From Nitrosopumilus sp. (GTDB taxonomy: Archaea; Thermoproteota; Nitrososphaeria; Nitrososphaerales; Nitrosopumilaceae): a stretch of DNA of 64,000 nucleotides. The DNA is taken from positions 896,001 to 960,000 of the forward strand of contig OZ245040.1 in NCBI GenBank assembly GCA_965224195.1. The letters are read 5' to 3'. Position numbers and translations under genes: made by a program. Below are positions 1,840-52,417 of this stretch, piece by piece; within the stretch, counting starts at the first letter, position 1, and every line of letters begins with the position of its first letter. Below the pieces are notes generated by a model, which saw nothing but the letters and a program-made list of their open reading frames with translations, was not told where the DNA came from and ran no database searches.

Positions 1840-3020
1840 ATGAAATTACTAGTAATTCTTGGTTTAGTTTTGCTTAGTTTTGTTTTGATGAATTATTCTA
1901 ATGATTTGGTGTATGCTCAATTTTCAAATCAGAATACTCTCAATGTAATCTTTGAAAATAATGTTTCTCCTTCATATGAAATGCCTCTAGTTCCAGGACA
2001 AACATTCACTCTAACTCAAAATCACTCTTGGGTTAATGATGAAACAAGTAGGTATAATCTTGAATCATATACTCTTGATGGTGAGAAAGTAAAAATTTCT
2101 AGAACTGCATGAGGAGATTTCACATTGAATATCTCAACTGATTCATCTCATGAAGTAGTCCTTTCAGCTGTACAACAATATGCCCTAAGTGTAGAGGGAA
2201 CAAATGATTCCTCTTTTCTTCCATCTTCTCCAACTAATGATAACTGGTTTGATGCAGGCTCTGAAGTATCATCATGTAAGAATCGAATAACAATTTTTTT
2301 TGTTTTAAATGATAACTGGTTTGATGCAGGCTCTGAAGTATCAGTTAACGTGCAAAAAACAACAGAAATTGAACCAAACAAGGTAGGACAAGAGATAACT
2401 GGCTGGTCATTAGACAAGGCAGAGTTTTGGGAAATAGATGATAATGGAAATACATCATTTACCACTCCTCCTGTATCTCTAAATGAATATCATTAGGTGA
2501 TTTCTTTGTTGCATATCAATACAAACTCAATGTAATTTCTGAATCTGGTGAAACTACTGGAAGTGGTTGGTATGAGCAGGGAATTACTGTCCCAATTGGA
2601 ATTGATGCAGGTGGAGATGGATTGGTGTTAAATTCTGTATCTGGATGGGATGGTGCAGATGTGACATATGATGGAAATATTGTCCAAGTGTTCATTGATG
2701 GTTCCGTAACTGTTTCAGCTAAAGTTGAAAAAAATTATTCTCTAATAATTGGAATGATTGTTATTCCAATATTGGTTATTGGTGTTGTTGGGTATAGAAA
2801 ATTCAAGAATAGACCTCCTATAGTAATTGAGAAGCCTGTTGAGCGAATTGTAGAAAAAGTCATAGAAAGAGTAGAGGCTCCGGAGAAAAAATATGAAGAT
2901 GGGTATGATAACAAACTCTCAGAATATTTATCAGAACAAATTCAATCAAAACTAGATGAGATGCTTTCATCTAAAATTATCTCTGAAACAAAATATTCAA
3001 AGATTAAAGAAACTCTATGA
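1840..3020 (+). pseudogene. Fragmented secreted, membrane-anchored protein
   Basis: Three consecutive ORFs (signal peptide, beta-rich repeats, C-terminal TM) broken by a TGA at 2110 and a frameshift near 2496. Contains the duplication+insert scar at 2236-2343. Confidence 0.75.
2236..2343. repeat. 36-bp direct duplication flanking a 36-bp insert
   Basis: aatgataactggtttgatgcaggctctgaagtatca at 2236-2271 and 2308-2343. Confidence 0.95.
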
Positions 3021-11221: not shown

Positions 11222-11601
11222 TTGGATAAGAAGAATGAATTTCAGACAGATTTGAGGGTAGAAATGTCCAAGATGAATAGACCCAAATCCAGAAATCTTT
11301 TAGTTTATGGAAAACCTGGAACAGGCAAGTAGAAATGTCCAAGATGAATAGACCCAAATCCAGTGTAAAACAATAGTAATTATTAAAATCTAGAAAACAA
11401 ACAAAGCATGTGAACGTTTTCCAGATAAAATTAGAAGTTGAAACATCAAAAGAAATTCTATTACAGACAATTTTAGAAAACAAGGAGAATTTGGATACAA
11501 ATATGATTGCAATTGCGATTAAAGATTATGTTAAAAACCATGAAAAATATGATATTGAGAAAAAAAGACTCTTAGATTTTATTTCAGATGTAAAAAAATA
11601 A
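11222..11601 (+). pseudogene. Degraded hypothetical gene
   Basis: Frame MDKKNEFQTDLRVEMSKMNRPKS is broken by the 71-bp scar and by in-frame stops, then continues as 11410..11601. Confidence 0.5.
11258..11363. repeat. 35-bp direct duplication flanking a 36-bp insert
   Basis: gtagaaatgtccaagatgaatagacccaaatccag at 11258-11292 and 11329-11363. Confidence 0.95.
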
Positions 11602-12684: not shown

Positions 12685-12789
12685 ATGAACAAACGTTTTG
12701 GTATGGTAATTGCTACCTTGGGAATCATAGTTACTTTTGCTGTGATAATTGGTTCACCAGCACTTGGTGGCTTTGATGCTATGAGATAA
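12685..12789 (+). CDS. Small single-TM peptide
   Basis: 34 aa, MNKRFGMVIATLGIIVTFAVIIGSPALGGFDAMR. Confidence 0.5.
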   Translation: MNKRFGMVIATLGIIVTFAVIIGSPALGGFDAMR

Positions 12790-12979
12790 TTTAGTAGCAT
12801 AAACTTCATTATTAATTTTTGAAACTAACATTAGTAATAACTCACATCGAGTCTGAATAGAGTAGTATACTTTATGACTATCACAAATAAAGAAAATGAA
12901 AACTAGATATTCTCACAAGGGGACCATCACTTTGGTTAAAGTCTCTGTAGGCTCAATTCTTAAACCATGATGATGTTAT

Positions 12980-13438: not shown

Positions 13439-13452
13439 CCGACATTTCTCAA

Positions 13453-13635
13453 TTAAGAATCTGAATTTGGAACATAGTCTTTACATGAACATTCACTACA
13501 TACTATGTTTGATTTCAATTTCCCCGAAGGCATTGAAGTTCCTGCTAGGAAATCCCCATCGCCATGACGATCTAACAAAAGTTGATGATCTTCTTTTGAA
13601 TGTGAACAATTTTTGCAATTATCATCTGTTATCAT
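13453..13635 (-). CDS. Small Cys/His-rich metal-binding protein
   Basis: CKNCSH...H and CSECSCKDY. Confidence 0.6.
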   Translation of the reverse strand: MITDDNCKNCSHSKEDHQLLLDRHGDGDFLAGTSMPSGKLKSNIVCSECSCKDYVPNSDS

Positions 13636-15484
13636 GATTTATTTTGTATTTGTAAACTCCTATTTGTGGGTTTCACTAAACAATTCTCACAAGGGGAATT
13701 GTTTGATTGGTTCAAATTTTTACATATTCAACACTGAGATGGATTAATTATTTCAAAAATAAAACTAAAGATCCCATTACAATCAATATGCTTATGAAAA
13801 TTAACAAATTTCTAATGGGATTCCTAACAACATATCTTTCATCATGTTTTCTTAGGTGAAATCAAAGACTTCGCCCCTTTCAATTCTTTCCTTGAACTTC
13901 TCTTTGGATTTTTCATGGGCTATGTCATTTTCACTTTGTAGGGTTTTTTTTGACATGGATAATAATGACAGTTATTGAATTTATTGTAGCTAGTTGGAAT
14001 TCCTAAAACTTGTAAAGAAATTAACAAAAAAATTGAATACGTGTTCAATATGCTTTCCAATTACTTTTTGTTTTATGTTTGGTAATAGTAGTTATGACTA
14101 GAACAGAAAGAAGACGAAATACTGCCCATCCTACACGGGATGGGAAACACAATCCAGTATGTGTTGATCCTAACTGTGAGGATTGTTAATTTGTAGGTGG
14201 TGGACCAAATGGGATTGAAGCCCTGGCAGTCGTGGGTTTATGATACATTCATCAGACGACTTAATGGTTGTTATAAAGGATGTCCTGTAGTGGTATAAGT
14301 AATAATACCATATGACAAGAATATCACTAAAGCGATGCAAACTTTTTGAGAACCTCAACACTAAGGGACTCCTCATGGTATTTTACCCCGTCTTTGTTTT
14401 CACTCTTTGTAATTATTACCCTGGGGCCGAGATCTTCTATCATCCTAACTATCTTCTTTTGTAGGACCATTACCAGGGAGAGTAGGGTATAATATTGTCA
14501 GTTATGATGTACTGGTGTCTTTACTGTTGCCAGTATGAGTATGGGAGAGGATATTTACAATGAGTGTTGAGGGTTTGTCAAAAAAACATCTTATGCAACT
14601 ACGAGAAGCTGGGACCAACTTTTATCCAACAAATAAGGATGGGAGAAAAGAGGGGATTTACAAAGATAAAGTGGTTGCCATAAAAAGAGAGGAGCAAATA
14701 TTTAGGACACTACAATCAACTGAGGAATTTGAGCATGCAATATCACAGCCGAATTTTTGTGCAGTGTTTACTACTAACTCTCTTGCATTTGTAATTGATG
14801 ATGATACTGAAGAAAATATCAAGGTGGCCAGAGACCACACCATATGCACGTACAGAAAAAAGATTGATCGCACAAGCTTCCACTATTTTGTAATTGCAAA
14901 AACCACGAGGATTTTGAAAAGCTTGCAGTAAAAGACGAGTATATCGAGCACCTTGAGGTGTTTACATATCATAAAATGCGCGTACTTGACGTCCAAGGCC
15001 ATTTTAGGCTTGACAACAACAAATCAGATCCCAAAGCATCATGGTTCCTAAAGGGTGGAGACTACCAAAGACTGCGGATATCCCCTCATTACATATGATA
15101 TGGCAAAGAACATACCAGAGTGGGGGTAAGCCTGATTCGTCTGGGGATGGCAAAAGCGTATCCCTGAAAAAATTTCAAGGAGTAGATATTAACAAGCCAC
15201 CAACACCACACATGACAAATACCAGATTTAACAGCATTGCAATAAAGTGTCTAAGTTATGAAGGCTGGAGTGATGAGAAGACATTAAAACACCTAGAGAT
15301 GCTAAATACAAAAAGAGCATATCCTCATACCAACGATCTAAAACAATATATCACCAATGCAAAAAAATACCTGGAGGATTTTAAAGATGATTTTAAGGAT
15401 GGCATCTACCCCATAACACTTGATAACCTAAATGATATAACAAACCCAAAATACGCAGACAAGCTTGTAACTGTTAGGGGAGTA

Positions 15485-15590
15485 GTATCAAGTAATATGA
15501 TATCATACAGCGTTCCATTTGTAAACAAAGCTGAGCTATTGAAGAAAGGTCTAATGGTATCAAGTAATATGATACCATACAGCGTTCCAT
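15485..15590. repeat. 34-bp duplication (1 mismatch) flanking a 38-bp insert
   Basis: gtatcaagtaatatgata[t/c]catacagcgttccat at 15485-15518 and 15557-15590; period 72. Confidence 0.9.
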
Positions 15591-16526
15591 ACAAACTAAA
15601 AGTCAAATGCATCAATGAAGATGAGGGTCACATAACACATGACAATGAAGAAGACAGAACAAAGATTGTGACAATCAGAAAAAAAAACAATGCCTTTATT
15701 TGTTGATGCCAGTTATAGTGGAAAAAATAAAATATTAGGTCCAATATCGAAGATACCTTTTGATTCTAAATGTACCACTTTCTATAAGGAAAAAGAGCAT
15801 CTAACAATAAACAGGATGAAGATAAGGTCCATAATGCACTCACTAATCATTGATGGTAAAGAATTCCTAGATGATGATGAAAACAAATACTCCTCATATG
15901 ACATTTATGTACTGCAAAAGGATGCTGGCAACAATCTCACTGCTGGAAAAGAGATGGAGGTGAATGGATATGTTATTGCAGATCCCAAAAACGCCAAAAT
16001 CACAATCATGGCAGTACACGTAAGGGAACTAAATGAGAATAACTATAACATAGAAAAGATAAAGGAATTGCAGGTGCTTCACGCAGGCAAGTCACTACAA
16101 GAGATAGTGGACTGGTTTGCATCAGAGTTCACAAAATACACAAAGATAGTGAAACGCAAAGATCTCATATTAGGTGTCATCCTCAACATGTTTAGCTCAC
16201 TAGGTTTTGAGTTTGAGTATAAGATTGTACGTGGCTGGGTAAATATAATAGTAATTGGCGACTCTACTACGGGAAAATCTGAGATAGTGCGACTTGTGAT
16301 AAAACTGGCTAAGTCTGGGCAGATAGTAAGTGGTGAGATGGCAACTATCGCAGGAATTGCGGGTGCATCAATTCAGGCAACTGGTGGTCAATGGTTTACT
16401 GATTATGGACTATTACCATTACAGGACCGCAAGGCCTTATGGATAGATGGTGCACACAAGATACCAAAACATGAGATGGACAAGCTAGCAGAAGCTGAGA
16501 GGAGTGGAAAAATAGAGATAAACAAG

Positions 16527-16638
16527 GCATCAAAGGGCTCTGCATGGGCAAGAACCAGACAGCTGAGAGAGAAAGAATTGCAGCTGCCATTGCAGCTAAC
16601 TAGCATCAAAGGGCTCTGCATGGGCAAGAACCAGACAG
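16527..16638. repeat. 36-bp direct duplication flanking a 40-bp insert
   Basis: gcatcaaagggctctgcatgggcaagaaccagacag at 16527-16562 and 16603-16638. Confidence 0.95.
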
Positions 16639-16672
16639 GGTAAAATTATGAACCCCCTTAATGATGAGGGGC

Positions 16673-16768
16673 GTGACACTACCACCATGAACAACTTTAT
16701 TTGAAATGGTGGGACACAACAACCAACGCTGCGATAGTGTGACACTACCACCATGAACAACTTTATTT
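16673..16768. repeat. 30-bp direct duplication flanking a 36-bp insert
   Basis: gtgacactaccaccatgaacaactttattt at 16673-16702 and 16739-16768; period 66. Confidence 0.95.
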
Positions 16769-17160
16769 ATCCTATACAGGCACTTACAAACTCGTTCCAA
16801 TTACAAACAATTGCCCGCTTTGACTTGGTATTATTTGTGCTAGATGATGAGGCCACAAAGTATATTGTCAGTGAAAACCTAGACAAGCACGGTAAAACTG
16901 ATAATTTTGACTTGTCGTATATGGGTCAATAGTAAATATTAAATGCATATTATTTTATACTTTACTAGTAAAATAATAGGGGGTCAGTAAAATAATAAAG
17001 GTTTAGTAGAATAATTAATTATACATTGCAAGCACGTACTAGTATATCTTGATTTTAACATTGTAGGGACATATATCAAAACTACAAGTTAAAGTCAAAC
17101 TATAAAATTATAAAATATAAAACCATAAACTATAACATTGAGAATCACTAATCAAATATC

Positions 17161-17268
17161 ATGTCATATTTCTACAAGAGATGCCCAAAGTGCAATGAGA
17201 TATGTGCTGGTACCATAGAACTGGTAGGGCATTTCCAAGAAAACCCAAGTCATAGGCCAAAGCCATAA
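17161..17268 (+). CDS. Small C2H2 zinc-finger peptide
   Basis: 35 aa with CPKC-x12-H-x6-H. Confidence 0.5.
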   Translation: MSYFYKRCPKCNEICAGTIELVGHFQENPSHRPKP

Positions 17269-17327
17269 TTAAAACTATGATTAAACTTGATCAATAGTAA
17301 AATCAAAAACTGTTATGTACTATTAAC

Positions 17328-19306: not shown

Positions 19307-19360
19307 AACTGTTAATGTTGCCCAGAAAACCCTTTATTTCTTTGTACCTTTGTACCTTTA

Positions 19361-27060: not shown

Positions 27061-27186
27061 CAGGTTTGATGCCACACATACAACTGATAAACTATCCATT
27101 TTCAATTTAACACCGTATCGCACAATAACTGACAAGGCAACAGGTTTGATGCCACACATACAACTGATAAACTATCCATTTTCAAT
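27061..27186. repeat. 46-bp direct duplication flanking a 34-bp insert
   Basis: caggtttgatgccacacatacaactgataaactatccattttcaat at 27061-27106 and 27141-27186. Confidence 0.95.
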
Positions 27187-38607: not shown

Positions 38608-41232
38608 TTAGGTAGGAATTTTGAATGACTTTCCATCCAGCTGTGCACGATCTATCCCTTCCTCGTTTGAATAATATTCATTTTTTAGTAACGGAATCCC
38701 GTTATCAAAATTAAGAATATCAGACAACTTTGCAGAGCCATGAGAATTTTTAATGTTTACTGTAAACTTGGAAAGTATACTACTCCAAATCTTGGTATTA
38801 ATTTTCTTATCAATATGTCCTCCTTGAAAGTTCTTAAGAAATTCATTATACATTTTCCAGATCTGCCTACCTGAAACTTTCTCGCAGGATTGACCTTTAT
38901 GTTGAATAAATTTTAATTCAGATTCTGTAAAATTATCTTCATCTTTTGGAACATCAGCATCAATAATTAAAGAGATTGAATCTTGTTTTATGACATCCAC
39001 CTTGTTAAGTTCTTCAAAATCTAAATGTCGTATGCCTTTTTTAACAACACCAAGTGAAGATGCTTTTATCATGTCGTTGTCTCGGGTTTTTATATGCTCC
39101 AATACTTTGTTGTAATAATCATCAAAATTTCTTTTTTCTAGAAAACCTTGCACCAGTTTAGGCGTATTAAAATCGTCTCCAAGGATTGTTTTCCAGCGGT
39201 GAGAGTCTGCATAAATGAAGCTTGCTGCTTGCTTTTGCCCTTCCTTTAAATTGGTAACAATCAGTTTTGCAGTGTTTTTTTGATTATTCGAATTGCGATT
39301 GATTCTACCTGCAATTTGTTCAATAGAATCAAAAATTGCAAAATCCCTAATTCCGAAATCACAGTCTATGTCTACTCCTGCCTCCACACTTTGTGTGGAA
39401 ATTAAAATTACCTTACCACTAGCATTCATTTTTCCTATGATCTCTTTTCGTCTATGTGGCAGAATTGTTGAATTTAGAAGATATGGATAAAAGCCCATAC
39501 TTGATATTTTTTTGTCTTTTTTTATTTTTTTGTACAATTCCAGAGAAGTTTGAATGGTGTTAACAACCAACAGTATCTTGTTCATGTCATCATTGAGTTC
39601 ATCATTTAATACATTCAATAATTGTTCCAGATCATTAACATTCTGTCTGTATTGAATGGATACGCGATTTTTAAATAATGGAAGATCAGAGTATCTGTTA
39701 GAGTTAATCAGATTCAAGGCAAGGTCAGACTCTTTTGTATCAGATAAAGCATCAAGTCTTGGTAGTGTTGCACTCATGATAATAAAGTAAATGTTAAGAT
39801 ATTTGGAACCATACATTATAAGATCGTTGAAGAGTGTCCAATCCTTGTCATTTAGGCTCTGAATTTCATCTATGACCACAATAGAGTTGGCCAAATTAAC
39901 AAGACGGTAATTACTAGTTTTTCCTGATTTTACAAAGGTGTTAAAAAAATTCACATTACTCATAACAACAAATTCATGATTAAGAAACTCATTATCAATT
40001 ACATATTGTAGACGTTCCTCGTCTTTTTCTGATTCAACATTCCAAGCAGATGAGGAATAGATAGATGATAATTCCTTATCCAAACAAAATGTTTTTTTTA
40101 TCACATCGTGGTTTTGCTCAATTATATTGATGAATGGAAATATGTAAAAGACTCTCTTTATGTTATTCTTTGATTTTAGCAAGGTAAGAGCAAGTTTAAG
40201 GGAAATGTTTGTCTTGCCACCACCTGTAGGAATATTTAGATAAAATACCTTTTGCTCTGGGTGGTTTGATATGGCATTCTCAAGTTCGCAGTCAGTTTCT
40301 AAAAGTATTCTTGTCCTTAATTCATTCAAATCATCAATATCAGAAATATTTGAATCAATTGTATTTTTGGAATGTTTGCTAGTGCGTAGATTTTTATTGA
40401 AATCATAATTGTAAAAGTTCTTTTCACATCTTTTAACCAAGTCTGATGTTATCACAGAGATTTTATCAAAGTAAGAAATATTTTGTATAAAATCACTAGT
40501 AGCATAATAATCACTTGTAATCAAAAGGGAGTAAACTGTTTTGTAAAGATAAAACAGGGATTCTTGTTTTTCTTCAGTATCATAAACATTTCGAATATCA
40601 TCTTTATTTTTATTTTTGAAATTATAAGCATCACAAAAATTTTTTACGGGTGGAAGGTCTTGACAGTCAATGAAAAAAGTATGAGAAATTGTGTTTAAAT
40701 CATCTAATTCTTTTTGAATTGTGTTGTAAGAGATTGTATTGGCACACATTTTTTTGTAAAGAAAGTCAATATCTCTTAATGCTGTATGGTGTCTATCTAT
40801 TGTTTGGGACAAAAGAAAAAAAAGAATTTGACATTTTGTGTCATGGAATTTGTCGTAAAAATCCTTAAAAAATAAATGATCAAATAATATTTTACCATAA
40901 AAAGAATGATTAGAATTGAGATTTTCTATATTGATACATAAATCATTTCTCATCTTTTCTTTCTGAAAAATAGGATTAATCTTACCTAGATCATGATAAT
41001 AAATAATAGACCTAATCAACTCAAGAATATCGGATGTTGGGGTGTCAGGTACTAGCTTTGACAAAATACCATTAAAATTTTCTTTTAGTGATAACGTGTC
41101 AATTAAATGATTACAGTATTTCAATGTCTTCTCCGAATGTTCAATTAGTGTTTCCGAATTTTTGTTACTTGAAGTATGTGCAAAAATTTTGTTGCAATAT
41201 TCAGGTTTTAATATCTGGTTGTATGTTTTCAT
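38608..41232 (-). CDS. cas3: CRISPR-associated HD nuclease/helicase Cas3
   Basis: ETLIEHS, YYHDLGK, PTGGGKT, IDEIQ, MSAT and QIAGRINR motifs. Confidence 0.95.
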   Translation of the reverse strand: MKTYNQILKPEYCNKIFAHTSSNKNSETLIEHSEKTLKYCNHLIDTLSLKENFNGILSKLVPDTPTSDILELIRSIIYYHDLGKINPIFQKEKMRNDLCINIENLNSNHSFYGKILFDHLFFKDFYDKFHDTKCQILFFLLSQTIDRHHTALRDIDFLYKKMCANTISYNTIQKELDDLNTISHTFFIDCQDLPPVKNFCDAYNFKNKNKDDIRNVYDTEEKQESLFYLYKTVYSLLITSDYYATSDFIQNISYFDKISVITSDLVKRCEKNFYNYDFNKNLRTSKHSKNTIDSNISDIDDLNELRTRILLETDCELENAISNHPEQKVFYLNIPTGGGKTNISLKLALTLLKSKNNIKRVFYIFPFINIIEQNHDVIKKTFCLDKELSSIYSSSAWNVESEKDEERLQYVIDNEFLNHEFVVMSNVNFFNTFVKSGKTSNYRLVNLANSIVVIDEIQSLNDKDWTLFNDLIMYGSKYLNIYFIIMSATLPRLDALSDTKESDLALNLINSNRYSDLPLFKNRVSIQYRQNVNDLEQLLNVLNDELNDDMNKILLVVNTIQTSLELYKKIKKDKKISSMGFYPYLLNSTILPHRRKEIIGKMNASGKVILISTQSVEAGVDIDCDFGIRDFAIFDSIEQIAGRINRNSNNQKNTAKLIVTNLKEGQKQAASFIYADSHRWKTILGDDFNTPKLVQGFLEKRNFDDYYNKVLEHIKTRDNDMIKASSLGVVKKGIRHLDFEELNKVDVIKQDSISLIIDADVPKDEDNFTESELKFIQHKGQSCEKVSGRQIWKMYNEFLKNFQGGHIDKKINTKIWSSILSKFTVNIKNSHGSAKLSDILNFDNGIPLLKNEYYSNEEGIDRAQLDGKSFKIPT

Positions 41233-41239
41233 TGTTGTA

Positions 41240-42244
41240 TTAGAAGAGGTATATTATATATCCATCTATCTCAAGAAGACTCCCTTTCTCCAAGTCTATT
41301 GAAGACAGGTCACAGCTTTCTGCAAATTGTACAACTTGAAGTTTGTAGTGCATGTCTTGAGAATAACTTGTCGGATAATTTTCAATAAATCTAAATCCAG
41401 TAGGAAGGCCTTCTATTGTACAAGAATCATTGTTTTTTTCAAGAGGATTTGATCTGCTATTTTTTTCATCGCTATTACCAATACTTTTTCTATTTGTGAT
41501 GAATACAGATGATACATGTTCTGTATTTTTTATCTGTCTAACATTATCTATTGTTTGAATGTTATCAAAAGATACAATAAACTCGTTTTTTCCAAGATAT
41601 GGCATAAAAATCGGATTGTTGTCCTCTATCCTTTTTGACAGCTCATCAATTAGCTCTTCTTTGGTGTCGTCATACACGTAAATCCTGTAGGATGGTTTTA
41701 TCAGAAGCTGCTCGTCACAAATTATGTTTTCATACTTGCCGCCACCAAAATAGCTGTTGCGGCTGTTATATCTATTCACTATTTTGTTAAACGGAAAATT
41801 GCCGTTTGGTTTTATTCCAATCTTAAGATGTTTGAGTCTTTTATAATATTCAGGATACTGGATCTCAGATTCTAACTCTTCTATGATTTTATAGTACTCG
41901 TCGCCGTGGTCAAAGTTGCCTTTTTTTATATCTTTTAGGGTGTTTAGTAATTCAAGCAATCTATCACGTGCCTTGAACTTTAATCTTTCAAGTATGATCT
42001 GAATTAAATCGATATCAATTTTATCTTGTTTTTTTGTTGACTTTAACGATTCCAATTGAAGATACTCCAAATTTTCATATTGCTTGTTTATTCCACCCAT
42101 CCCCAATATGCTACCGATTATTCCCAAAATTGCAGGTTTTGGAGGCAGATTGTATGTTAGGCTTATTTTGTTGATATCAGGTTTCTTAAAAAAGCCAAAA
42201 TCCGAACTAATATCAAAGGAGATAAGACTTGTCATCAGAATCAC
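41240..42244 (-). CDS. cas5: Type I-B Cas5 with an internal insertion
   Basis: DFGFFKKPD..LTY..PKPAILGIIGSILG and PYLGKNEF motifs. Confidence 0.88.
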   Translation of the reverse strand: MILMTSLISFDISSDFGFFKKPDINKISLTYNLPPKPAILGIIGSILGMGGINKQYENLEYLQLESLKSTKKQDKIDIDLIQIILERLKFKARDRLLELLNTLKDIKKGNFDHGDEYYKIIEELESEIQYPEYYKRLKHLKIGIKPNGNFPFNKIVNRYNSRNSYFGGGKYENIICDEQLLIKPSYRIYVYDDTKEELIDELSKRIEDNNPIFMPYLGKNEFIVSFDNIQTIDNVRQIKNTEHVSSVFITNRKSIGNSDEKNSRSNPLEKNNDSCTIEGLPTGFRFIENYPTSYSQDMHYKLQVVQFAESCDLSSIDLEKGSLLEIDGYIIYLF

Positions 42245-42255
42245 ACCTAGTTGAT

Positions 42256-43236
42256 TTACTTGTTGTGGATTTCTTCTAAGGTAACAATATGTCTTTTTTT
42301 AACAGGGAACATTTCTATTCCACTTAATTCAGTTTCATTATCATCATAATACAGTTCCACACTTGAAATATATTTTTTATAATTTTTTTCAAATATAATA
42401 AAAAGATCTTCTAAATCTATTTGAGTTTTTCCATTGCTCTTGTTTATTTTGACATGATCTTTCATCATAGGCAGTATATGGGATTCTATTTTTTCATCTT
42501 TTTCATCAGCATTCATTTCAATGAACATGAACAATTCAGAATCAGATCCAATTTTGGAAGCAGATGTAGTATGGCTAACACTACGGCACATTGCTTCTTT
42601 GAACAGTTCTACATCTAATTCTGACAAAAGTGATTCGTTAGTTTTTTTGTCACTATATACTAGCGAATTAATCAAATTATTGGGATTGATCACAAAATCA
42701 TATACATAGTGAGCCTCTAGTGTCTTTGTTTCATTTCCAAGAGTTTGTTGTTTTGCCTCTTTCTTTTTTTCACTTGCCTTTAGATCTGCATATGGAGAAA
42801 GTATTTGATTGTTAAAAAACAGATTTTCATCAAGTTTGTTAATGCCATAAGAAATCTGTGTTGTTCCGGTTAGTGAAACATTAGTTTTTCCAGCATATGT
42901 GGCACCAAATAATCTAACATCAAGTGCAGATGACAATTTGTCAATTGTGTCTGGTTTATTATCAGATGGTTTTGAATTAAAAACCGATTCATAGTTGTCA
43001 TCTATATTGCATGGATTGCCATCTTTTTTGTATCTCCTCCAAACAAACACTTTCTTGCCTTTGTCATGCAAATATTTTCTAACACAATATTTTAGTGCCT
43101 TATCTGTAGCATATATTGTTCCATTGTTATCAGGCAATCTTCGTGGTAATCCGCTAAAATCACTGTTAAAAGAGCTGTTTTGTGTCCTTACAATCAATAG
43201 GCCTTGTGCAAATTTCTTAAAATGTTTGCTTGTCAT
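42256..43236 (-). CDS. cas7: Type I-B Cas7 (Csh2-like)
   Basis: NSDFSGLPR, ATDKALKY.VR, DVRLFG and QQTLG motifs. Confidence 0.9.
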   Translation of the reverse strand: MTSKHFKKFAQGLLIVRTQNSSFNSDFSGLPRRLPDNNGTIYATDKALKYCVRKYLHDKGKKVFVWRRYKKDGNPCNIDDNYESVFNSKPSDNKPDTIDKLSSALDVRLFGATYAGKTNVSLTGTTQISYGINKLDENLFFNNQILSPYADLKASEKKKEAKQQTLGNETKTLEAHYVYDFVINPNNLINSLVYSDKKTNESLLSELDVELFKEAMCRSVSHTTSASKIGSDSELFMFIEMNADEKDEKIESHILPMMKDHVKINKSNGKTQIDLEDLFIIFEKNYKKYISSVELYYDDNETELSGIEMFPVKKRHIVTLEEIHNK

Positions 43237-43261
43237 AGACACATCATTCCTTTTTCTTGTA

Positions 43262-44953
43262 TTAAATAATGTTTTCGTCAAATGCTCCAACATAAAATGG
43301 GATCTTTAATGGTATAAACGAACTGTCAGTTTCGTATGAAAGAACACATGATGCAATCTTTCTAAAACGCATATTGCTAAGATTTATCTCATGTCTATAT
43401 TGCTCTATAAGTTGTTCAATTGTTTTCTTGACTAGTTGTGTAGTAGACTTGTTGGTAAACGGTTCAAGAAGCCCATAGGTTTTGTCTTTTGATTTGGACA
43501 AAGACACCAAGTAGTAAGCTATTTGACCTGTAAAGTATGCCCATGCCTCATGACTAGCAATCTCAAATTTTTCAATCTCATTGGATGTAATCTTTTCTTT
43601 TGCATCTTTGATATGGTCTAAAACACAGTTAGTCTTATCTTTATTCTGCAATAACAAATGTCTGTTAAAAAACAAATTAAAGGTTTCCCTATAGTAGAAT
43701 GTAGTGTTATTTCTTATACTTTTTTCCACCCTAAACAAAATGATGTTTTGCAAATCTCTGTCAGTTAGCGTACGCTGATTTCTATAGACAAAATCAAATA
43801 CCTTTTGTCTTAGAGAATAAGTCAAGGTGGTCTGCTGCTGATCTTTTGCACTTATTATTTTACCAAAATATTGAATGTGGGGTTTATCAGTTAATGCTTT
43901 AGATATCTCTGATTCAATTTGAATACGAGTAACGGAATATGACTGTCTATCCTCATCAAAAAAATCTACATATTCACCAATTTCCCATTTATATCCCGTG
44001 ACATAATCAAAGAAATAATAATCATCGTGGGTAATTACAACAAGATAAAAATCAAATATTTTCTTGTCTTGTTTGAGTTGTTTAAAAATAAAATCAAATT
44101 TATTTTCATCTTTTTCTAGGTTAGATCCTAATAATTTGATTTCTGCATTTAGTTCATCAGGTACAATGAACAAAGGAAAAATTTTGATTTTGTAATGTTT
44201 TAGTATTTTATCAAATTTATCTAATTTTAGTACACAATCCCTGCATGCTCTAAGTGGAATACCTTTACCATTTTTACTAAACTTGGTAACATGTTTTAAA
44301 AAAATTTTCTTTTCATCATAGTTGGTCAAAAAATTAGGATTTGAAATTGTAGTGTTTTTGTTACATACAAAACACTCCCCATCAATGACAAGAGATGCCT
44401 TTCCTTGTGCTGTTTTCTTATTAATAGAATCAGATGCAATTTTTTCCCATTGAACAAATCTTTCTTCACCAGTATGAATCAATACATAAAAATTCAGATA
44501 CTTGAAAGTGTTATCGTTTTTTTCTTTCAAATCATCCGCCGCATCTTTTAGAATTTTGTGAATGTTTTTGATTAGTGTTTCATGTTCATTCTTTGAGAAT
44601 TTTGTTTGGCTTATTTTTTTCAAAAAACAGTTGAGGTTTTTGTCTGAAAGTTTGAAGGCAAAAAAAGAGTATGTTGCTAATCCACTCATACTGCCCAATG
44701 CTTTCTGTAGCATAGACGGCAAAATATAACCATCAAAGTTCTTTATTATTTTTTCATAATACTTGTTTTTATCAATCCATTCTTTGATTTTAGAATCATC
44801 ATCTAATATTTCAAGCTCATCATATTCAAGGAAGTTATTCTTTTCTTTGGTTTTAACTATGATAATTTTTTTTCCTGCATAATCTTTTTCAAATTTTTGT
44901 TCTGGTTTGTTTTTGTCATATGTATCAATAAACACGATTATCTCTTTTAGCAT
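43262..44953 (-). CDS. cas8b: Type I-B large subunit Cas8b
   Basis: Lies between cas6 and cas7; CFVC..CRDC Zn finger; C-terminal Cas11-like AYFTGQIAYYL. Confidence 0.75.
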   Translation of the reverse strand: MLKEIIVFIDTYDKNKPEQKFEKDYAGKKIIIVKTKEKNNFLEYDELEILDDDSKIKEWIDKNKYYEKIIKNFDGYILPSMLQKALGSMSGLATYSFFAFKLSDKNLNCFLKKISQTKFSKNEHETLIKNIHKILKDAADDLKEKNDNTFKYLNFYVLIHTGEERFVQWEKIASDSINKKTAQGKASLVIDGECFVCNKNTTISNPNFLTNYDEKKIFLKHVTKFSKNGKGIPLRACRDCVLKLDKFDKILKHYKIKIFPLFIVPDELNAEIKLLGSNLEKDENKFDFIFKQLKQDKKIFDFYLVVITHDDYYFFDYVTGYKWEIGEYVDFFDEDRQSYSVTRIQIESEISKALTDKPHIQYFGKIISAKDQQQTTLTYSLRQKVFDFVYRNQRTLTDRDLQNIILFRVEKSIRNNTTFYYRETFNLFFNRHLLLQNKDKTNCVLDHIKDAKEKITSNEIEKFEIASHEAWAYFTGQIAYYLVSLSKSKDKTYGLLEPFTNKSTTQLVKKTIEQLIEQYRHEINLSNMRFRKIASCVLSYETDSSFIPLKIPFYVGAFDENII

Positions 44954-44993
44954 CTATCACACAACATTGTAATCAATAATTCTAAATTATATA

Positions 44994-45743
44994 TCATTTT
45001 AAAATTATCTTTTTAATAACAGGATTCACAAAACCAAAACCAAGTGAATTTCGTTCCCCTAATCCACAATCAAGAGCAAACTTTTGAATTTTAGGCGAAA
45101 TACCAGATGAAAACTCTATATTCCATAATGACCCAATAATTGGAATTTTTGACGTTCCCTGCTCAATTTTAGTTGATACCTGTTTTTTGAATTCATATCG
45201 CTCAAAGATTCTTTTTTTAATTTGTAATCCAGTAAACTCGGTATATTTTTTTCGCATATTGGCCTCAAGTGCATCAATGAACAGGTCAACTGGATGATCA
45301 GATCTCCACAGGACTGACTTGTAAGGAGCAGTATTCGTTATTTTCCCATAATATTTTTCAATAGGTATACGCACAATTATCGGAGATTGGGTAACTATTT
45401 TTAATGGAAATACTAAATTTTTTTCAGGTACTTTTGTTACCTTAATTATCTTAAATAAACTTCCAATTGATATTAGTACATGATTGTCAATGATTTTGTT
45501 TAATTGATCATGTATCTGGTTTATGAGTTCTTTATCAGGTGAAGATATAATCAAATGGTAATGCTTATAATTTGTTGATTTGAATATGTTTGAAAAGCAA
45601 AAGAACTTGTATCCTTTTTTATCATGTAGTTGATCAAAGCTGCTATTTCGAAGAAAAGAGTAGATAAATCCTTGGATTTTTCCATGATATTCAAAATTAA
45701 TTTGATAATTTTGTAATGGTTTTATGAAAAGCAGTATACGCAT
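44994..45743 (-). CDS. cas6: CRISPR endoribonuclease Cas6
   Basis: LHDKKGYKFFCFS and GLGERNSLGFG motifs. Confidence 0.95.
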   Translation of the reverse strand: MRILLFIKPLQNYQINFEYHGKIQGFIYSFLRNSSFDQLHDKKGYKFFCFSNIFKSTNYKHYHLIISSPDKELINQIHDQLNKIIDNHVLISIGSLFKIIKVTKVPEKNLVFPLKIVTQSPIIVRIPIEKYYGKITNTAPYKSVLWRSDHPVDLFIDALEANMRKKYTEFTGLQIKKRIFERYEFKKQVSTKIEQGTSKIPIIGSLWNIEFSSGISPKIQKFALDCGLGERNSLGFGFVNPVIKKIILK

Positions 45744-45811: not shown

Positions 45812-48800
45812 ATTTCAATCCTCAGTAGTTGGGAAAGTAAAATCTAATTACTTGAGTTTCGGTTATTCCACATCGATTTTATGATGATATTTCTATTAAT
45901 CCTATAATTTGAGCCCGATATTTGTCTAGGCACAAAAATCAATATGGAAAATTTAGTGAAAATCGCCCTCTCACAAGTTACTTTCCCAAGTACTGATCCT
46001 ATAATAGTTCGATTCAAACGAGCCATAATGATGTAGCAACTTTGAAAGATTGGTAATTTCAATCCTATAATAGTTCGATTCAAACTGGGATTTTACTTGT
46101 TGCAGGACAGAGTACCTGGTACATTTCAATCCTATAATAGTTCGATTCAAACCCTTGTCGTCGGTTATGCCAAGGTAAGTTCGTACATAATTTCAATCCT
46201 ATAATAGTTCGATTCAAACTGTCTCGGCCTGGAGGCTTTGGAAACGTTTCCTGGCATTTCAATCCTATAATAGTTCGATTCAAACTGGAAAGCGATGCGG
46301 GATGTGCGACATATATCTGACTATTTCAATCCTATAATAGTTCGATTCAAACGAGCAATGAGGATCTATATAAAAAGATAAATTCACAATTTCAATCCTA
46401 TAATAGTTCGATTCAAACTTGATGAAATTAGAACATCATCTGAGATGTTCTCCGATTTCAATCCTATAATAGTTCGATTCAAACCTAATCGCAAAATCGA
46501 CAACAAGATATTTCCATTCAATTTCAATCCTATAATAGTTCGATTCAAACGTATAGCTCTGAAACATGATATCCTGCTGTGATGCCTATTTCAATCCTAT
46601 AATAGTTCGATTCAAACTAATCAAACCTCCGATCCAGATGTGAATACTTCATCATTTCAATCCTATAATAGTTCGATTCAAACGATCCTGCGTCCTTTAC
46701 CTCGCCGGAAAACGAGTCAAATTTCAATCCTATAATAGTTCGATTCAAACGACGACAATATTAACATGTGAGCGTATGTTAGTTTCATTTCAATCCTATA
46801 ATAGTTCGATTCAAACTCGTAACATAGGCACAAATGCGGCAGGAGTTGGGGTATTTCAATCCTATAATAGTTCGATTCAAACCAGCTGTTACAGCATAAC
46901 AAACATGCTAAATTCCCAATTTCAATCCTATAATAGTTCGATTCAAACTGGTATTGAATCCTATAATAACATCTCAAACGCATAATTTCAATCCTATAAT
47001 AGTTCGATTCAAACACGAAAGCGATGCGGGATGTGTGCCATATACCTGGTGATTTCAATCCTATAATAGTTCGATTCAAACAAGACATGAACAGACTGCT
47101 AAACGCTCAAATTTGTGATTTCAATCCTATAATAGTTCGATTCAAACATGCGCGCTTGATGTATACGCCTACTGTAGATACATCCCATTTCAATCCTATA
47201 ATAGTTCGATTCAAACAGTTCCAAACGATTATAATTATATCGTGATGGCATAATTTCAATCCTATAATAGTTCGATTCAAACATGGCAATCGCCAAGTTC
47301 TAAGACACATTGTAATTTAATTTCAATCCTATAATAGTTCGATTCAAACAATCCATGTCAGCACCTGTCCGTCTGGCGTTATCGTATTTCAATCCTATAA
47401 TAGTTCGATTCAAACCGACAGCAAACGCGCATTCTGCAGGTGTCGCGGCAATATTTCAATCCTATAATAGTTCGATTCAAACCCACGATCAGAGACAGAA
47501 GGAAAAGGGAAACGGATTCATTTCAATCCTATAATAGTTCGATTCAAACCTTGATCCAATAGAATGGGAAACAAGGCATAATACCATTTCAATCCTATAA
47601 TAGTTCGATTCAAACGACAGATCATACTGTTGATATGCCGCGTATATCATGCATTTCAATCCTATAATAGTTCGATTCAAACGCGCACATTTGTATCGTG
47701 AACACTATAAGAGTATTCAATTTCAATCCTATAATAGTTCGATTCAAACTATTGTAATCTGTCATGTAAGCGGTCATTGCGTATTCATTTCAATCCTATA
47801 ATAGTTCGATTCAAACCTTGATCCAATAGAATGGGAAACAAGGCATAATACCATTTCAATCCTATAATAGTTCGATTCAAACGACAGATCATACTGTTGA
47901 TATGCCGCGTATATCATGCATTTCAATCCTATAATAGTTCGATTCAAACCTCAACAGACAAGACGGCAGCGGGGTCAGTGACCTCATTTCAATCCTATAA
48001 TAGTTCGATTCAAACGGCAAACACTCCCCTCCATGTATCACTGCAGCAAAAATTTCAATCCTATAATAGTTCGATTCAAACCGCAGAATATGATAGTGTT
48101 AACAATGTCTACAACAAATTTCAATCCTATAATAGTTCGATTCAAACACGGCACATGGGCAATCAGATCAGCCGGCACCTGATTTCAATCCTATAATAGT
48201 TCGATTCAAACTTTATTCTGTCAGCCATTGTTAAATAAGTTTAATTGTATTTCAATCCTATAATAGTTCGATTCAAACAGTCCGGCGCCACAATACACGT
48301 CTCACCCGCTATTACATTTCAATCCTATAATAGTTCGATTCAAACCAATTCTGGAAATGGATCATCCTCGTCAAACTCGTCATTTCAATCCTATAATAGT
48401 TCGATTCAAACCAGAAATGGAAAAAATACCATCAAACTCTGTAGACCATTTCAATCCTATAATAGTTCGATTCAAACCGCCTTGGGGCAGAGGTATTAAC
48501 ATATTAGATTCTCATTTCAATCCTATAATAGTTCGATTCAAACTTGATACGAATTGCAATGATGGAGGATTCTCTGCAAATTTCAATCCTATAATAGTTC
48601 GATTCAAACCTGTATCAGAATTCATATTCAAACTGAACTTTATGCATTTCAATCCTATAATAGTTCGATTCAAACAATTTGCAAAAATCTTCATTGCAAC
48701 TGTGGGATAAGATTTCAATCCTATAATAGTTCGATTCAAACTGTTCTGTCATATCCGCTAAAATCATGATCCGAATAAATTTCAATCCTATAATAGTTCG

Positions 48801-50529
48801 ATTCAAACTAATTTGCCACTGGACATCATACCCCACTTCATCAAATTTCAATCCTATAATAGTTCGATTCAAACACGAAGATAGAAGCGAGTGCTACACC
48901 GACTACTACATTTCAATCCTATAATAGTTCGATTCAAACGGGTCTGATACAGCCCAAAGAACGCAAAATGCAGAATTTCAATCCTATAATAGTTCGATTC
49001 AAACCGGCAAAGATACAACCGCTAGTGGCTTACACCCCCTATTTCAATCCTATAATAGTTCGATTCAAACGCATTTTTTACACCGTTTGAATCGTTTACC
49101 AGCTTCAATTTCAATCCTATAATAGTTCGATTCAAACGCGGCACATACACAAACGCTGTATCAAGGGGTTGGATTTCAATCCTATAATAGTTCGATTCAA
49201 ACCCAGCTGATGGCAGTGACTTTCAATTATTATAATTTCAATCCTATAATAGTTCGATTCAAACTTATTTCCTGGCCTTGGCTATGATACAGCCTATAAG
49301 ATTTCAATCCTATAATAGTTCGATTCAAACTTTGTCTAGCAAATCTTGCAATCCACCATAAGTTAATTTCAATCCTATAATAGTTCGATTCAAACAAGTC
49401 TGAATTATTGACAATGCCATATACCCATAGAATTTCAATCCTATAATAGTTCGATTCAAACAAAGAATTGCACACATTCACATGTCCGACATCACACATT
49501 TCAATCCTATAATAGTTCGATTCAAACTAAGCGATGACCTAGATGATGCAAAGGTCGATTACGAATTTCAATCCTATAATAGTTCGATTCAAACAAGTAA
49601 CAGATCCTTCTAGTTGTGCTATGTAATCATATTTCAATCCTATAATAGTTCGATTCAAACGAACAACACTTAGGCGTTAAATCCTTCGAGGTTCTAATTT
49701 CAATCCTATAATAGTTCGATTCAAACCTATTACTTTGGTCTTTGATTCTCACTTTGCTCTGAAATTTCAATCCTATAATAGTTCGATTCAAACCAAAAAC
49801 TAGGCTCCTGGATAAAATGCGATGAAGAAGAATTTCAATCCTATAATAGTTCGATTCAAACTTTGCTCGTAAGAGATATCACGGTATGAGAATGACCTAC
49901 ATTTCAATCCTATAATAGTTCGATTCAAACGAGATAACTGATGATGATCTCTGGCAAAGAATACAGTCATTTCAATCCTATAATAGTTCGATTCAAACGT
50001 CTCTAACAGAACAGCAACACGACAGTCATACCACTATTTCAATCCTATAATAGTTCGATTCAAACATGCAACTGATGCGCTGTATTATGTTACAGTTGAT
50101 GATTTCAATCCTATAATAGTTCGATTCAAACAAATTACTATGGCACTATATCCAGGATCGGTAAATGATTTCAATCCTATAATAGTTCGATTCAAACGTT
50201 CCGAAGAGACCGGGATGAGGATGAGGATAAGAATTTCAATCCTATAATAGTTCGATTCAAACTGGAATTGGTGAATCCTGTGAATTTCTGAATTCTTGAA
50301 ATTTCAATCCTATAATAGTTCGATTCAAACTTTGACCGAATTAGCTATGAATCTAGATTTGCATCAATTTCAATCCTATAATAGTTCGATTCAAACTATA
50401 TCAGAATCGTTATAGCAGCGAGGGCAAAGATGAATTTCAATCCTATAATAGTTCGATTCAAACCAGAACTGCCACTAGTGCTATTGTTCCCTATTGGTTA
50501 TTTCAATCCTATAATAGTTCGATTCAAAC
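45812..50529 (-). CRISPR. CRISPR array, about 69 repeats / 68 spacers of ~32-39 nt
   Basis: Invariant 30-bp repeat GTTTGAATCGAACTATTATAGGATTGAAAT on the minus strand. Count is manual; orientation inferred from the ATTGAAAT 3' end and cas4 adjacency. Confidence 0.98.
45823..45995. mobile_element. 173-bp MITE (ISH3-like ends) inside the trailer CRISPR repeat
   Basis: TIRs cagtagttgggaaagtaa / ttactttcccaagtactg; 5-bp TSD atcct at 45818-45822 and 45996-46000. Removal restores a perfect repeat. Confidence 0.9.
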
Positions 50530-50679: not shown

Positions 50680-51171
50680 ATGGCAGATCCCCCCAATCTT
50701 ACTGGAACACAGATAAACTACTATTTTGTGTGCAAGAGAAAGCTCTGGCTGTCCTCACATAACATTGCCTTTGAGTCAAGCTCTGATCTGGTAAAAATTG
50801 GCAGTCTAATAGACAAGGACTCTTTTAAGAGAAAGAAAAAAAACATCCGGATAGGAGACATATCAATAGACCATATTGACAAGGGGGTAATACACGAGGT
50901 CAAAAAATCCGACAAGATTCATGATGCCCATGAATACCAGCTGCTCTACTACATCTACTATCTCAAAAAACTAGGAATAAGGACGACTGGCATACTCAAC
51001 TATCCAAAGCTGAAAAAAACGGTAAAGGTAGTCCTGACAAAACAGAAGCAGGCCTTTTTGGATAACATAGTCCGTGATGCTGCCAAGATAATCTCTGAGA
51101 AAAAGCCTCAAGCTGCAGAATACAAGCCAATATGTGACAAGTGCGCCTATGCGGAGTACTGCTGGTCATGA
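50680..51171 (+). CDS. cas4: Cas4
   Basis: GTQINYYFVCKRKLW, HEVKKS, QLLYY and CDKCAYAEYCW motifs. Confidence 0.95.
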   Translation: MADPPNLTGTQINYYFVCKRKLWLSSHNIAFESSSDLVKIGSLIDKDSFKRKKKNIRIGDISIDHIDKGVIHEVKKSDKIHDAHEYQLLYYIYYLKKLGIRTTGILNYPKLKKTVKVVLTKQKQAFLDNIVRDAAKIISEKKPQAAEYKPICDKCAYAEYCWS

Positions 51172-52154
51172 ACGATTACTACATATTCAAGGGAGGACGG
51201 GTCAAGCGTACTCAAAACACCATACAGATAATATCTGCTGACGATGAGAAAAAATCAATATCTGTAATGGATGTCAGGGCACTGCACATATTTGGCCAGT
51301 GTGACTTTAATTCGGCGTTGATAGTTTTTTTAAACACAAAGGGGATTGCGGTACATTTTTACAACTATTATGGAAATTATGCAGGAAGCTACTATCCGCG
51401 TGAGAAGCTCCTGTCTGGTCTGGTGACAGTACGGCAGGTACAGCATTATCTGAATCAGCAAAAAAGAATGTATCTTGCATCTGAATTCATACGTGCAGCT
51501 ACGCACAACATGCTTGCAAACCTGCGCTATTACAAGTCAAAGAAAAAGGACGTCTCTGTCCACATTGAAAAAATACAGCAACTGCAACAGAAGATGCCCT
51601 CATGCAGTAATATTGATGAGCTGATGGGAATAGAGGGAAACTGCAGAAACATATACTATGATTCATTTGACAGTTTTCTGAGGGATGACTTTAAGATGGA
51701 AAAAAGAACCAGAATGCCGCCACAAAACATGCTTAACTCGCTGATATCGTTTGGAAACAGCATGATGTATGGAAGTGCCGTAACTGAGATATATCACTCA
51801 CAGTTGGATCCTACCGTAAGCTATCTGCACGAGCCTGGATACAGAAGATTTTCATTGTCTTTGGACATCGCCGAGGTGTTCAAACCCGTAATCGTGGACA
51901 AGACAATATTTAAGATCGTAAACAGCAGGATGCTTGGTTCTGGAGACTTTGATGACTCTATGAATGGCTGTTACCTTGGAGAATCTGGGAGGAAGACGTT
52001 TGTCAAAGAGTATGATGAAAGACTGGACAGTACCGTCTATGTCTCTTCATTGAAAAAAAATGTGAGTTACAGGCGACTGTTGAGGATGGAATGCCACAAG
52101 ATAGTCAAGCACATTGTGGAGGATGCACGCTATGTCGGATTCAGACAGAGATAA
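51168..52154 (+). CDS. cas1: Cas1 (type I-B)
   Basis: YYGNYAGSYYPRE, LMGIEG, NSLISFGNS, SYLHEP and SLDIAEVFKP motifs. Confidence 0.97.
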   Translation: MNDYYIFKGGRVKRTQNTIQIISADDEKKSISVMDVRALHIFGQCDFNSALIVFLNTKGIAVHFYNYYGNYAGSYYPREKLLSGLVTVRQVQHYLNQQKRMYLASEFIRAATHNMLANLRYYKSKKKDVSVHIEKIQQLQQKMPSCSNIDELMGIEGNCRNIYYDSFDSFLRDDFKMEKRTRMPPQNMLNSLISFGNSMMYGSAVTEIYHSQLDPTVSYLHEPGYRRFSLSLDIAEVFKPVIVDKTIFKIVNSRMLGSGDFDDSMNGCYLGESGRKTFVKEYDERLDSTVYVSSLKKNVSYRRLLRMECHKIVKHIVEDARYVGFRQR

Positions 52155-52417
52155 TGTATTGCATAATAACGTATGACATTGGCACAGAGCGGATTGACGC
52201 AGTGCGTATAATGATCAAGCAATACCTCAACTGGATTCAAAATTCGGTCTTTGAAGGAGACATATCTGTGTCAAACTTGGCAGAGTTAAAGTCCAGAGTA
52301 TCTGACCTGATAAATGATGGCGAGGATTCGGTTCTTGTATTTACTGTAAACAATCCTGCATGGATAAAAAAAGAGGTGGTGGGAATTGATAAAAATAACC
52401 TGGATAACATAATATAG
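52154..52417 (+). CDS. cas2: Cas2
   Basis: MYCIITYDI...WIQNSVFEG motif. Confidence 0.95.
   Translation: MYCIITYDIGTERIDAVRIMIKQYLNWIQNSVFEGDISVSNLAELKSRVSDLINDGEDSVLVFTVNNPAWIKKEVVGIDKNNLDNII

Follow-up and report, generated by a model that had tools for sequence, protein, structure and literature searches.

Duplication–insert scars in a Nitrosopumilus replicase pseudogene as probable ectopic integrations by resident CRISPR adaptation complexes

Introduction

Non-canonical integration of spacers by CRISPR adaptation proteins, giving rise to 'neo-CRISPR' units, was described by Nivala, Shipman and Church (Nat Microbiol 2018; via PMC7054753, PMC11788318, PMC6698737 and bioRxiv 10.1101/148544) in Escherichia coli, with the type I-E system, over-produced Cas1–Cas2 and supplied oligonucleotides. 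According to a preprint citing that study, the evidence for off-target integration in nature is 'circumstantial' and concerns two other species. Here we describe three duplication-plus-insert structures, hereafter called scars, in an MCM-type replicase pseudogene of an integrated mobile element of Nitrosopumilus sp. The pseudogene lies in a stretch of 64,000 nucleotides (assembly GCA_965224195.1, contig OZ245040.1, positions 896,001 to 960,000 of the forward strand), referred to as the window. Judging from the sequence, we consider it likely, with a probability of about 0.85, that the three scars are ectopic (off-target) spacer integrations made by the resident CRISPR adaptation complexes.

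Several other systems are relevant. With purified Pyrococcus furiosus Cas1–Cas2 acting on plasmids, the off-target sites share features with the CRISPR repeat (PMC6698737). Adaptation by the Cas4/1–Cas2 proteins of type I-G (formerly I-U) has been studied in Geobacter sulfurreducens (PMC6547450) and Methanosarcina barkeri (PMC10504553). The protospacer-adjacent motif (PAM) reported for the Geobacter I-G Cas4/1 is TTN (PMC6547450). In the known integration chemistry, two strand transfers spaced by one repeat length precede gap repair (PMC10504553 and related papers). Fully processed prespacers are reported to integrate without fixed orientation, and prespacers without a PAM can be integrated in vitro (PMC10504553). 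Finally, the family 1 casposase of Candidatus Nitrosopumilus koreensis generates a 13-bp duplication at a specific site (PMC8464041).

Like the units of Nivala and co-workers, the scars consist of a spacer-sized insert between two copies of duplicated non-CRISPR target DNA, as expected from an adaptation integrase acting outside its array. They differ in being natural and archaeal, in their attribution to type I-G and probably I-B systems, in their number (about 41 in one genome), and by their self-derived inserts, polymorphic empty sites and recurrence in congeners. As at the P. furiosus off-target sites, there appears to be a likeness to the repeat, here between the duplication ends and its spacer-proximal end; unlike in that study, the evidence is made of genomic footprints only, and the motif is significant in the genome studied here, not in the smaller sample of a congener. 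Canonical I-G features are present, namely predominant 36-bp spacers, a repeat ending in ...ATTGAAGC and a Cas4–Cas1 fusion adjoining cas2 and the array. However, the targets of the scars are chromosomal, whereas canonical I-G integration occurs at the leader–repeat junction, from TTN-flanked protospacers and in a fixed orientation; TTN was found here at 0 of 7 self protospacers. The N. koreensis casposase is likewise a Cas1-family integrase, of the same genus, that inserts short oligonucleotides with target duplication, but the duplications reported here measure 30–39 bp and occur at many sites. On the reading proposed, this is a natural archaeal case of a reaction otherwise known mainly from the laboratory; what this genome adds is its scale, two systems each with its own ruler, self donors, empty alleles and congener controls. 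A survey by titles of the literature on CRISPR in Thaumarchaeota and Nitrosopumilus found no title on ectopic spacers.

Results and discussion

Three scars in one replicase pseudogene

The pseudogene and its scars are located as follows (positions without a prefix are those of the window).

14560..16932, plus strand: remnant (pseudogene) of the PrimPol–MCM replicase of an integrated mobile element, from a PF00493 match and tblastn with homologues
15485..15590, unstranded: scar 1; 34-nt duplication 15485-15518 / 15557-15590 (33/34 identical), 38-nt insert 15519-15556, period 72
16527..16638, unstranded: scar 2; identical 36-nt duplication 16527-16562 / 16603-16638, 40-nt insert 16563-16602, period 76
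16673..16768, unstranded: scar 3; identical 30-nt duplication 16673-16702 / 16739-16768, 36-nt insert 16703-16738, period 66

An earlier, sequence-only reading of this DNA had placed three such structures in a single MCM gene, which the present analysis bears out. The ORF (open reading frame) 15690-16643 matches PF00493, the Pfam MCM P-loop domain (E 7e-16), and the motif GDSTTGKS of the pseudogene falls in columns that are invariant or nearly so across 21 aligned sequences. Among longer proteins, a search found 22 homologues of 736–1032 aa, with 42–68% identity; some of them combine PF09250 (PrimPol) with PF00493, and one is labelled Nitrosopumilus. The best homologue, P0001 (1019 aa, intact), is 67% identical to the peptide reconstructed in the sequence-only reading, so the reconstructed frame does align to MCM.

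None of the 22 homologues has the scars, which supports the view that these are derived insertions. In tblastn with P0001, a 24-residue gap falls precisely at scar 1 and a 22-residue gap precisely at scar 3, and residues 686–697 align to both duplication copies of scar 2. When the insert and one duplication copy were deleted by script, each of the 22 homologues aligned as a single segment over scars 2 and 3, with 0–5 gaps: excision thus restores the alignment. For P0001 this segment covers residues 404–749 with 496 bits, against 414 + 94 bits before excision. Scar 1 is in frame and open and adds 24 residues, and the 76 nt of scar 2 shift the frame, both as previously described; the 66 nt of scar 3 bring two in-frame stops (TGA and TAG) and not the single one reported.

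The pseudogene carries further lesions, absent from the sequence-only reading. There is a frame change at the A10 run 15680-15689, the N-terminal portion is in fragments, and compared with the homologues of about 1000 aa the C-terminus is short by some 250 residues. With six of these homologues, tblastn coverage extends only from residue ~206 to residue ~750. There is no Pfam match for 14560-15706 and no intact frame of about 1000 aa with an N-terminal PrimPol domain. By its sequence, this is an MCM-family pseudogene, once a continuous replicase gene of a mobile element and now dead. The suggestion that insertion inactivated the replication gene of an invader is not shown; the order of these other lesions and the scars cannot be told. 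Since the window has no tRNA genes and the ORFs scanned include no integrase, the limits of the element are undefined.

A genome-wide class of scars

The whole assembly (G000; 2.06 Mb, GC (guanine + cytosine) content 33.6%; its contig coordinates are prefixed C1) was scanned, outside arrays and repeat clusters, for pairs of repeats that lie 40–130 nt apart and share a seed of 14 exact bases. There are 85 isolated pairs. Scars were defined by a period of 62–80, a duplication of 25–50 nt and an insert of 28–46 nt; 46 pairs correspond to this definition and, after removal on inspection of five protein-coding tandem repeats, 41 scars remain. The period histogram peaks at 71–75, with 35 of the 85 isolated pairs (any period from 42 to 126). 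When the genome was shuffled in 1-kb blocks, no repeat pair of at least 20 nt was found at a distance of 40–130 nt, which excludes a chance origin.

The duplication length peaks at 35–39 nt genome-wide. Duplications of 33–39 nt are found in 31 of the 41 scars, 30–32 nt in three (scar 3 included), 25 nt in two and 42–49 nt in five; the two copies are identical in 29 of the 41 pairs and differ by one mismatch in 11 and by two in one. The inserts have a mean length of 36.0 nt and a GC content of 0.41, close to that of the array spacers (0.42) and unlike that of the whole genome (0.336).

The units might instead be very small transposable elements or the traces left by a Cas1-like casposase, and the genome does encode a third Cas1 homologue (C1:1455224-1456135; open frame of 333 aa; Cas4/1 model match at E 1.5e-47), possibly a casposase. 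Such an origin is nevertheless highly improbable, as the 41 inserts are mutually unrelated in sequence and have no terminal inverted repeats, and casposase target duplications are 13–14 bp long (PMC8464041) versus 30–39 nt here. The only self matches of array spacers, which are partial (22 and 19 nt), lie near this third homologue, at C1:1457881 and C1:1465516.

Besides those of the pseudogene, the window contains three scars.

2236..2343, unstranded: 36-nt duplication, 36-nt insert, period 72; insert 34/36 nt identical to the host gins51
11258..11363, unstranded: 35-nt duplication, 36-nt insert, period 71; insert derived from the host orc1/cdc6
27061..27186, unstranded: atypically long 46-nt duplication, 34-nt insert, period 80; flanking ORFs without Pfam family

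Most scars are located in ORFs without a Pfam family. The eight in ORFs with a Pfam match affect a TatA-like protein, an SDR protein, an MFS transporter, a DsbA-like protein, a cupredoxin, an Fn3 protein, a SHOCT-domain protein and an IS4/5 transposase. The distribution along the chromosome is uneven: 15 of the 41 scars lie at 680–925 kb, a zone that includes the I-G array (the I-B array is just beyond, at ~942–947 kb), and there are none in the 400 kb of C1:200000-600000, where about eight are expected from the genome mean.

Two resident adaptation systems

Two CRISPR–Cas systems are present in the genome.

38608..45743, minus strand: type I-B interference genes cas3, cas5b, cas7, a 563-aa ORF and cas6 (NCBIfam matches)
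45990..50529, minus strand: type I-B array, 69 repeats of 30 nt, period 66–69
50680-51171, plus strand: cas4 (TIGR00372, E 5e-22)
51141-52154, plus strand: cas1b (TIGR03641, E 6e-131), open frame of 338 aa
52091-52417, plus strand: cas2 (TIGR01573, E 1e-9)
C1:707205-713740: type I-G array, 90 identical 36-nt repeats, period 72–75
C1:713912-715876, outside the window: type I-G Cas4/1–Cas2, with a cas4/cas1 fusion (NF049935, E 6e-215; open 557-aa frame) and Cas2

The adaptation genes of both systems are intact. The I-G array neighbours are cas2, the cas4/cas1 fusion, csb2, cas3g and csb1. In the I-B locus, which is complete, the 563-aa ORF occupies the cas8 position and matches no family, and a degenerate repeat at the low-coordinate end of the array suggests that the leader is at the high-coordinate end. 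The arrays total 157 spacers. Lengths of 36–37 nt account for 61 of the 89 I-G spacers (range 34–42 nt) and for 56 of the 68 I-B spacers (mode 36; range 32–39 nt).

The dimensions of scars 1 and 2 (34+38 and 36+40) resemble an I-G repeat plus spacer, and those of scar 3 (30+36) equal the modal I-B period. Scars 1 and 2 are therefore most likely of the I-G class (Cas4/1–Cas2). Judged by size, scar 3 is most likely the product of the I-B Cas4, Cas1 and Cas2 of the window, whose genes (50680..52417) encode the candidate integrase. The duplicated parts of the scars are local gene sequence, differ from scar to scar and do not have the internal palindrome of the I-G repeat (CCGTAAC...GTTACGG). As their repeats have neither the sequence nor the hairpin of the host systems, the scar units are not functional arrays or mini-arrays. 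None of the scars was seen to have grown into an array with three repeats or more.

Origin of the inserts

Eight of the 41 inserts copy other loci of the same genome, seven over their full length at 92–100% identity and one partially. The donors are hsdS, orc1/cdc6, gins51, a DUF7482 gene, genes of Fn3 surface proteins and a PD-(D/E)XK gene. The insert of scar 1 is identical over 38/38 nt to two hsdS genes (C1:1093513-1093550 and C1:1101298-1101335). The 157 array spacers have no comparable self match, the longest being those of 22 and 19 nt already mentioned. This contrast, eight of 41 against none of 157, would follow if self-spacers kill the cell when their array is expressed but do no harm in a silent ectopic unit.

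The two hsdS genes (C1:1092856-1094184 and C1:1100748-1102010) are inverted, lie about 7 kb apart and share at least the 38-nt stretch of scar 1. Phase-variable type I restriction systems typically show such an arrangement.

Three of the eight self-derived inserts come from a 40-kb stretch comprising orc1/cdc6 (C1:194940-196151), gins51 (C1:207576-208133) and C1:234307-235782. In the congener G009 (see below), the insert of scar 1800780 is identical over 37/37 nt to that genome's own orc1/cdc6 (C1:756496-756532), the same donor gene. The orc1/cdc6–gins region may thus be a hotspot of prespacer formation near a replication origin, a pattern seen post hoc. Cumulative GC skew gave no usable origin signal, so that 'near the origin' refers to the orc1/cdc6 and gins genes only.

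The insert of scar 2, which holds a hairpin with a 6-bp stem (folding energy -6.2 kcal/mol), has no second copy in the genome, and a 30-nt core of the scar 3 insert was matched exactly by no viral or metagenome contig. An alignment-based search for related PrimPol–MCM elements found seven loci in genome contigs and none in viral contigs; a single-protein search for such loci found nothing in either. Neither inserts nor array spacers match these seven elements, apart from chance matches of 13–15 nt. The flanks of the seven full-length self protospacers have no common motif: TTN is absent and no other shared 3-mer is evident; because of this the inserts could not be oriented.

Target-site preference

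Many duplications have one end that, read inward, appears to resemble GCTTCAATGG; this is how the I-G repeat ends on its spacer-proximal side (...CCATTGAAGC in the transcribed sense of the array). In a hypothesis-driven test on G000, the mean best match to GCTTCAATGG was 5.63, and 20,000 random sites averaged 5.14 (P 0.0004). For the opposite repeat end there was no enrichment. A post hoc motif, [TG]CAA[TC], occurs no more than 10 nt from a duplication end in 14 of the 41 scars and in 7.5% of controls (P 8e-7). The duplication of scar 2 begins with GCATCAAAGG, which matches GCTTCAATGG at 8 of 10 positions.

Two paralogous targets in G009, identical at 29 of 31 nt and both starting with GCTGCAAAAG, have each been hit independently with a different insert, which points to a strong site preference of the integrase. 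They are in opposite orientation:

C1:1744491-1744599 of G009: first paralogous target scar
C1:1800780-1800882 of G009: second paralogous target scar

Filled and empty alleles in public runs

Four public runs (X1–X4) contain the region, and their contigs were compared with window 1-20000. Empty sites exist for two of the five scars of this interval, and both are exact. For scar 2236, a contig of X3 joins 2235 to 2308 and skips 72 nt; for scar 11258, a 977-nt contig of X4 joins 11257 to 11329 and skips 71 nt. For scars 1–3 there is no empty allele among the contigs listed, but the listed pieces end or begin near the repeats, so absence cannot be concluded. Around scars 1 and 2, the pieces of X1 and X3 both cover 15561-16556 and that of X2 covers 15584-16556, with a start that differs by 23 nt; a contig of X2 spans scar 3. 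Because the breaks of X1 and X3 coincide, those of X2 lie close and X2 spans scar 3, the scars of the MCM pseudogene are probably common to these strains.

These data bear on the question of assembly or sequencing artefacts. The window assembly may be long-read based, and within the pseudogene the runs differ in length by single bases, as at 15075 and 15122. However, sampled 31-mers of window 11000-17000 are present at fractions of 0.99 in X1, 0.96 in X2 and 0.70 in X3, the last from a separate study; filled and empty alleles both occur as contigs, and like structures are found in the genomes of other species. The probability that the scars are artefacts is close to negligible.

Single-base indels distinguish run X2, and partly X3, from X1 at 14268, 14472, 15075 and 15122, in the N-terminal part of the pseudogene; they reflect differences between strains or else an assembly's errors in homopolymer length. 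At window 668-2001, the summed contig depth in the public runs is 10–100x that of neighbouring bins and variant positions are numerous, which suggests a multi-copy or widely shared element.

Scars in congeneric genomes

The Cas4/1 model was run against 81 genomes of the genus and six exceeded the cut-off. The same scar scan was then applied to 400 kb from each of four congeners. G009, which has I-G and I-B systems, contains 11 scars. G051, with I-G only, contains one clean scar and a doubtful one, whose insert belongs to a tandem-repeat family. G002 and G018, without Cas1 match, contain none in their 400 kb each. Scars are thus found in three of three sampled genomes with I-G and in none of two without a Cas1 match, a correlative result. 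For one scar locus, empty sites were also sought by DNA search in 31 genomes; the representatives of the species proved too divergent, and only off-site matches of 70–79% over 60–160 nt were obtained.

In G009, 35 nt of the insert of scar 1872101 coincide with spacer 12 of that genome's I-G array. Compared with this spacer the insert is displaced by 5 nt, at the end next to the upstream repeat, and its orientation is opposite, which recalls the unoriented integration of fully processed prespacers (PMC10504553). This one PAM-less, flipped and over-trimmed case suggests that mis-processed prespacers are those that go astray.

Proposed mechanism

A spacer-sized fragment of 36–40 bp would be loaded on the adaptation complex of the cell; for scar 1, the fragment would come from the host's own hsdS. 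The integrase would then attack a chromosomal site instead of the leader–repeat junction of its array, by two strand transfers on opposite strands, approximately one repeat length apart (~36 bp for I-G, 30 bp for I-B). Gap repair would duplicate the intervening target and give the order duplication–insert–duplication, so that both the duplication and the insert are explained. The choice of the site may be guided in part by resemblance to the spacer-proximal repeat end. The products would be silent two-repeat units that break or lengthen the gene hit and persist only where tolerated, for example in an already dispensable replicase gene of a mobile element. In this scheme, the catalysis by Cas1, the order of the events and the silence of the units are what we infer; observed are the footprints with their dimensions, inserts derived from the genome itself, empty alleles and intact adaptation genes.

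Several results weigh against ectopic spacer integration. None of the 41 inserts of G000 matches an array spacer of this genome over more than 11 nt, and the inserts of scars 2 and 3 have no source in G000 or in the seven related elements. TTN, the reported Geobacter I-G PAM, which may not be that of the present lineage, is on neither side of the seven full-length self protospacers (7/7). The assignment of scar 3 to the I-B integrase is made by size alone. In G009, with 11 scars, the repeat-end test is not significant (P 0.16). A de novo orientation and motif search by expectation-maximization gave a log-likelihood gain of 174.6, against 92.9 +/- 6.8 for random sites, but the orientations disagree with the repeat-end motif, and the gain is not used as evidence because it may reflect the higher GC content of the target sites. 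The congeners are few and interrelated, and each was sampled over 400 kb. Lastly, 10 of the 41 duplications are outside 33–39 nt, and a strict ruler predicts neither 42–49 nor 25 nt; the lengths of duplication and insert are negatively correlated (r -0.76 overall and -0.55 in the core class). In a rough calculation, the core-class correlation is accounted for by boundary ambiguity: chance extension of the boundaries predicts a covariance of about -1.08, close to the value of about -0.99 derived. The length outliers are left unexplained by boundary extension.

The negative correlation, with a sum better conserved than either length, would also fit an accident of repair or replication independent of CRISPR, such as template switching or microhomology-mediated break repair. 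A short distant copy would then fill a break, the flanks would be duplicated and the agreement of the characteristic added length of ~72 nt with the CRISPR period would be fortuitous; the copying of the genome's own DNA by some inserts and the lack of an evident PAM are in line with this. Yet we regard it as very unlikely. Apart from the covariance, the donors are hundreds of kilobases away, there is no microhomology at the inspected junctions, and the inserts are no richer in hairpins than GC-matched random 36-mers (P 0.71). Moreover, the period of scar 3 is the 66 of I-B and not 72, the two congeners without Cas1 have no scars in 400 kb each, and a 35-nt overlap links one G009 insert to a genuine array spacer.

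The cluster in the MCM pseudogene

Three scars lie within 2.37 kb. The Poisson probability of such a cluster is 1.7e-5 relative to the genome mean, 4.6e-4 relative to the 680–925 kb zone and 0.0125 relative to the local density (window 1-30000), the last figure including the three scars themselves. The 'hotspot' of the sequence-only reading is thus moderately supported, the cluster being unlikely under the genome mean and only slightly out of the ordinary for the local density.

The first two values, and the footprints of two different systems in one gene, could be taken to mean that an invader still active and replicating had drawn in the adaptation machinery, for instance through primed adaptation, and that mis-integration contributed to the invader's inactivation. 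This is improbable in our view. The significance largely fades against the local density, and no array spacer matches the element or its seven relatives. The gene has other lesions, and other scars sit in ordinary host genes and in an IS (insertion sequence) transposase, so that no targeting of invaders is evident. The public contigs listed show no empty allele of the MCM scars, and hence give no timing relative to the death of the element. Passive retention in dispensable DNA together with local sequence preference is enough to explain the cluster.

Significance of the scars

The citing papers describe the natural frequency and cost of off-target integration as open; the ~41 footprints quantify the cost of adaptation in terms of gene disruption. 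The scars are also a natural set of spacers unfiltered by autoimmunity, in view of the contrast in self-derived sequences between scars and arrays, and a natural set of target sites from which the intrinsic sequence preference of the integrase can be read. For annotation, they explain puzzling lesions of 66–76 nt, made of a duplication plus an insert, in pseudogenes.

A wider proposal is speculative and unlikely. The CRISPR integrases of this lineage, above all the I-G Cas4/1–Cas2, would be a substantial endogenous mutagen, with about one in five retained integrations ectopic (41 vs 157), and the scars an unselected fossil record, showing heavy sampling of the cell's own chromosome and a hotspot at orc1/cdc6 (origin) in two species. 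In its boldest form, three scars from two systems in one replicase gene would reflect recruitment to an active invader, with mis-integration as a second, insertional arm of defence and as a seed for new arrays.

Other repeat units in the genome

Two solitary degenerate I-B repeats, with 5–6 mismatches, are found about 150 kb from the I-B array, at C1:790579-790608 and C1:795315-795344. Either the remains of an array or single repeat units carried by mobile DNA could account for them. A remnant mini-array at C1:1626224-1626333, far from cas genes, comprises 1.5 degenerate I-G-like repeats and one spacer.

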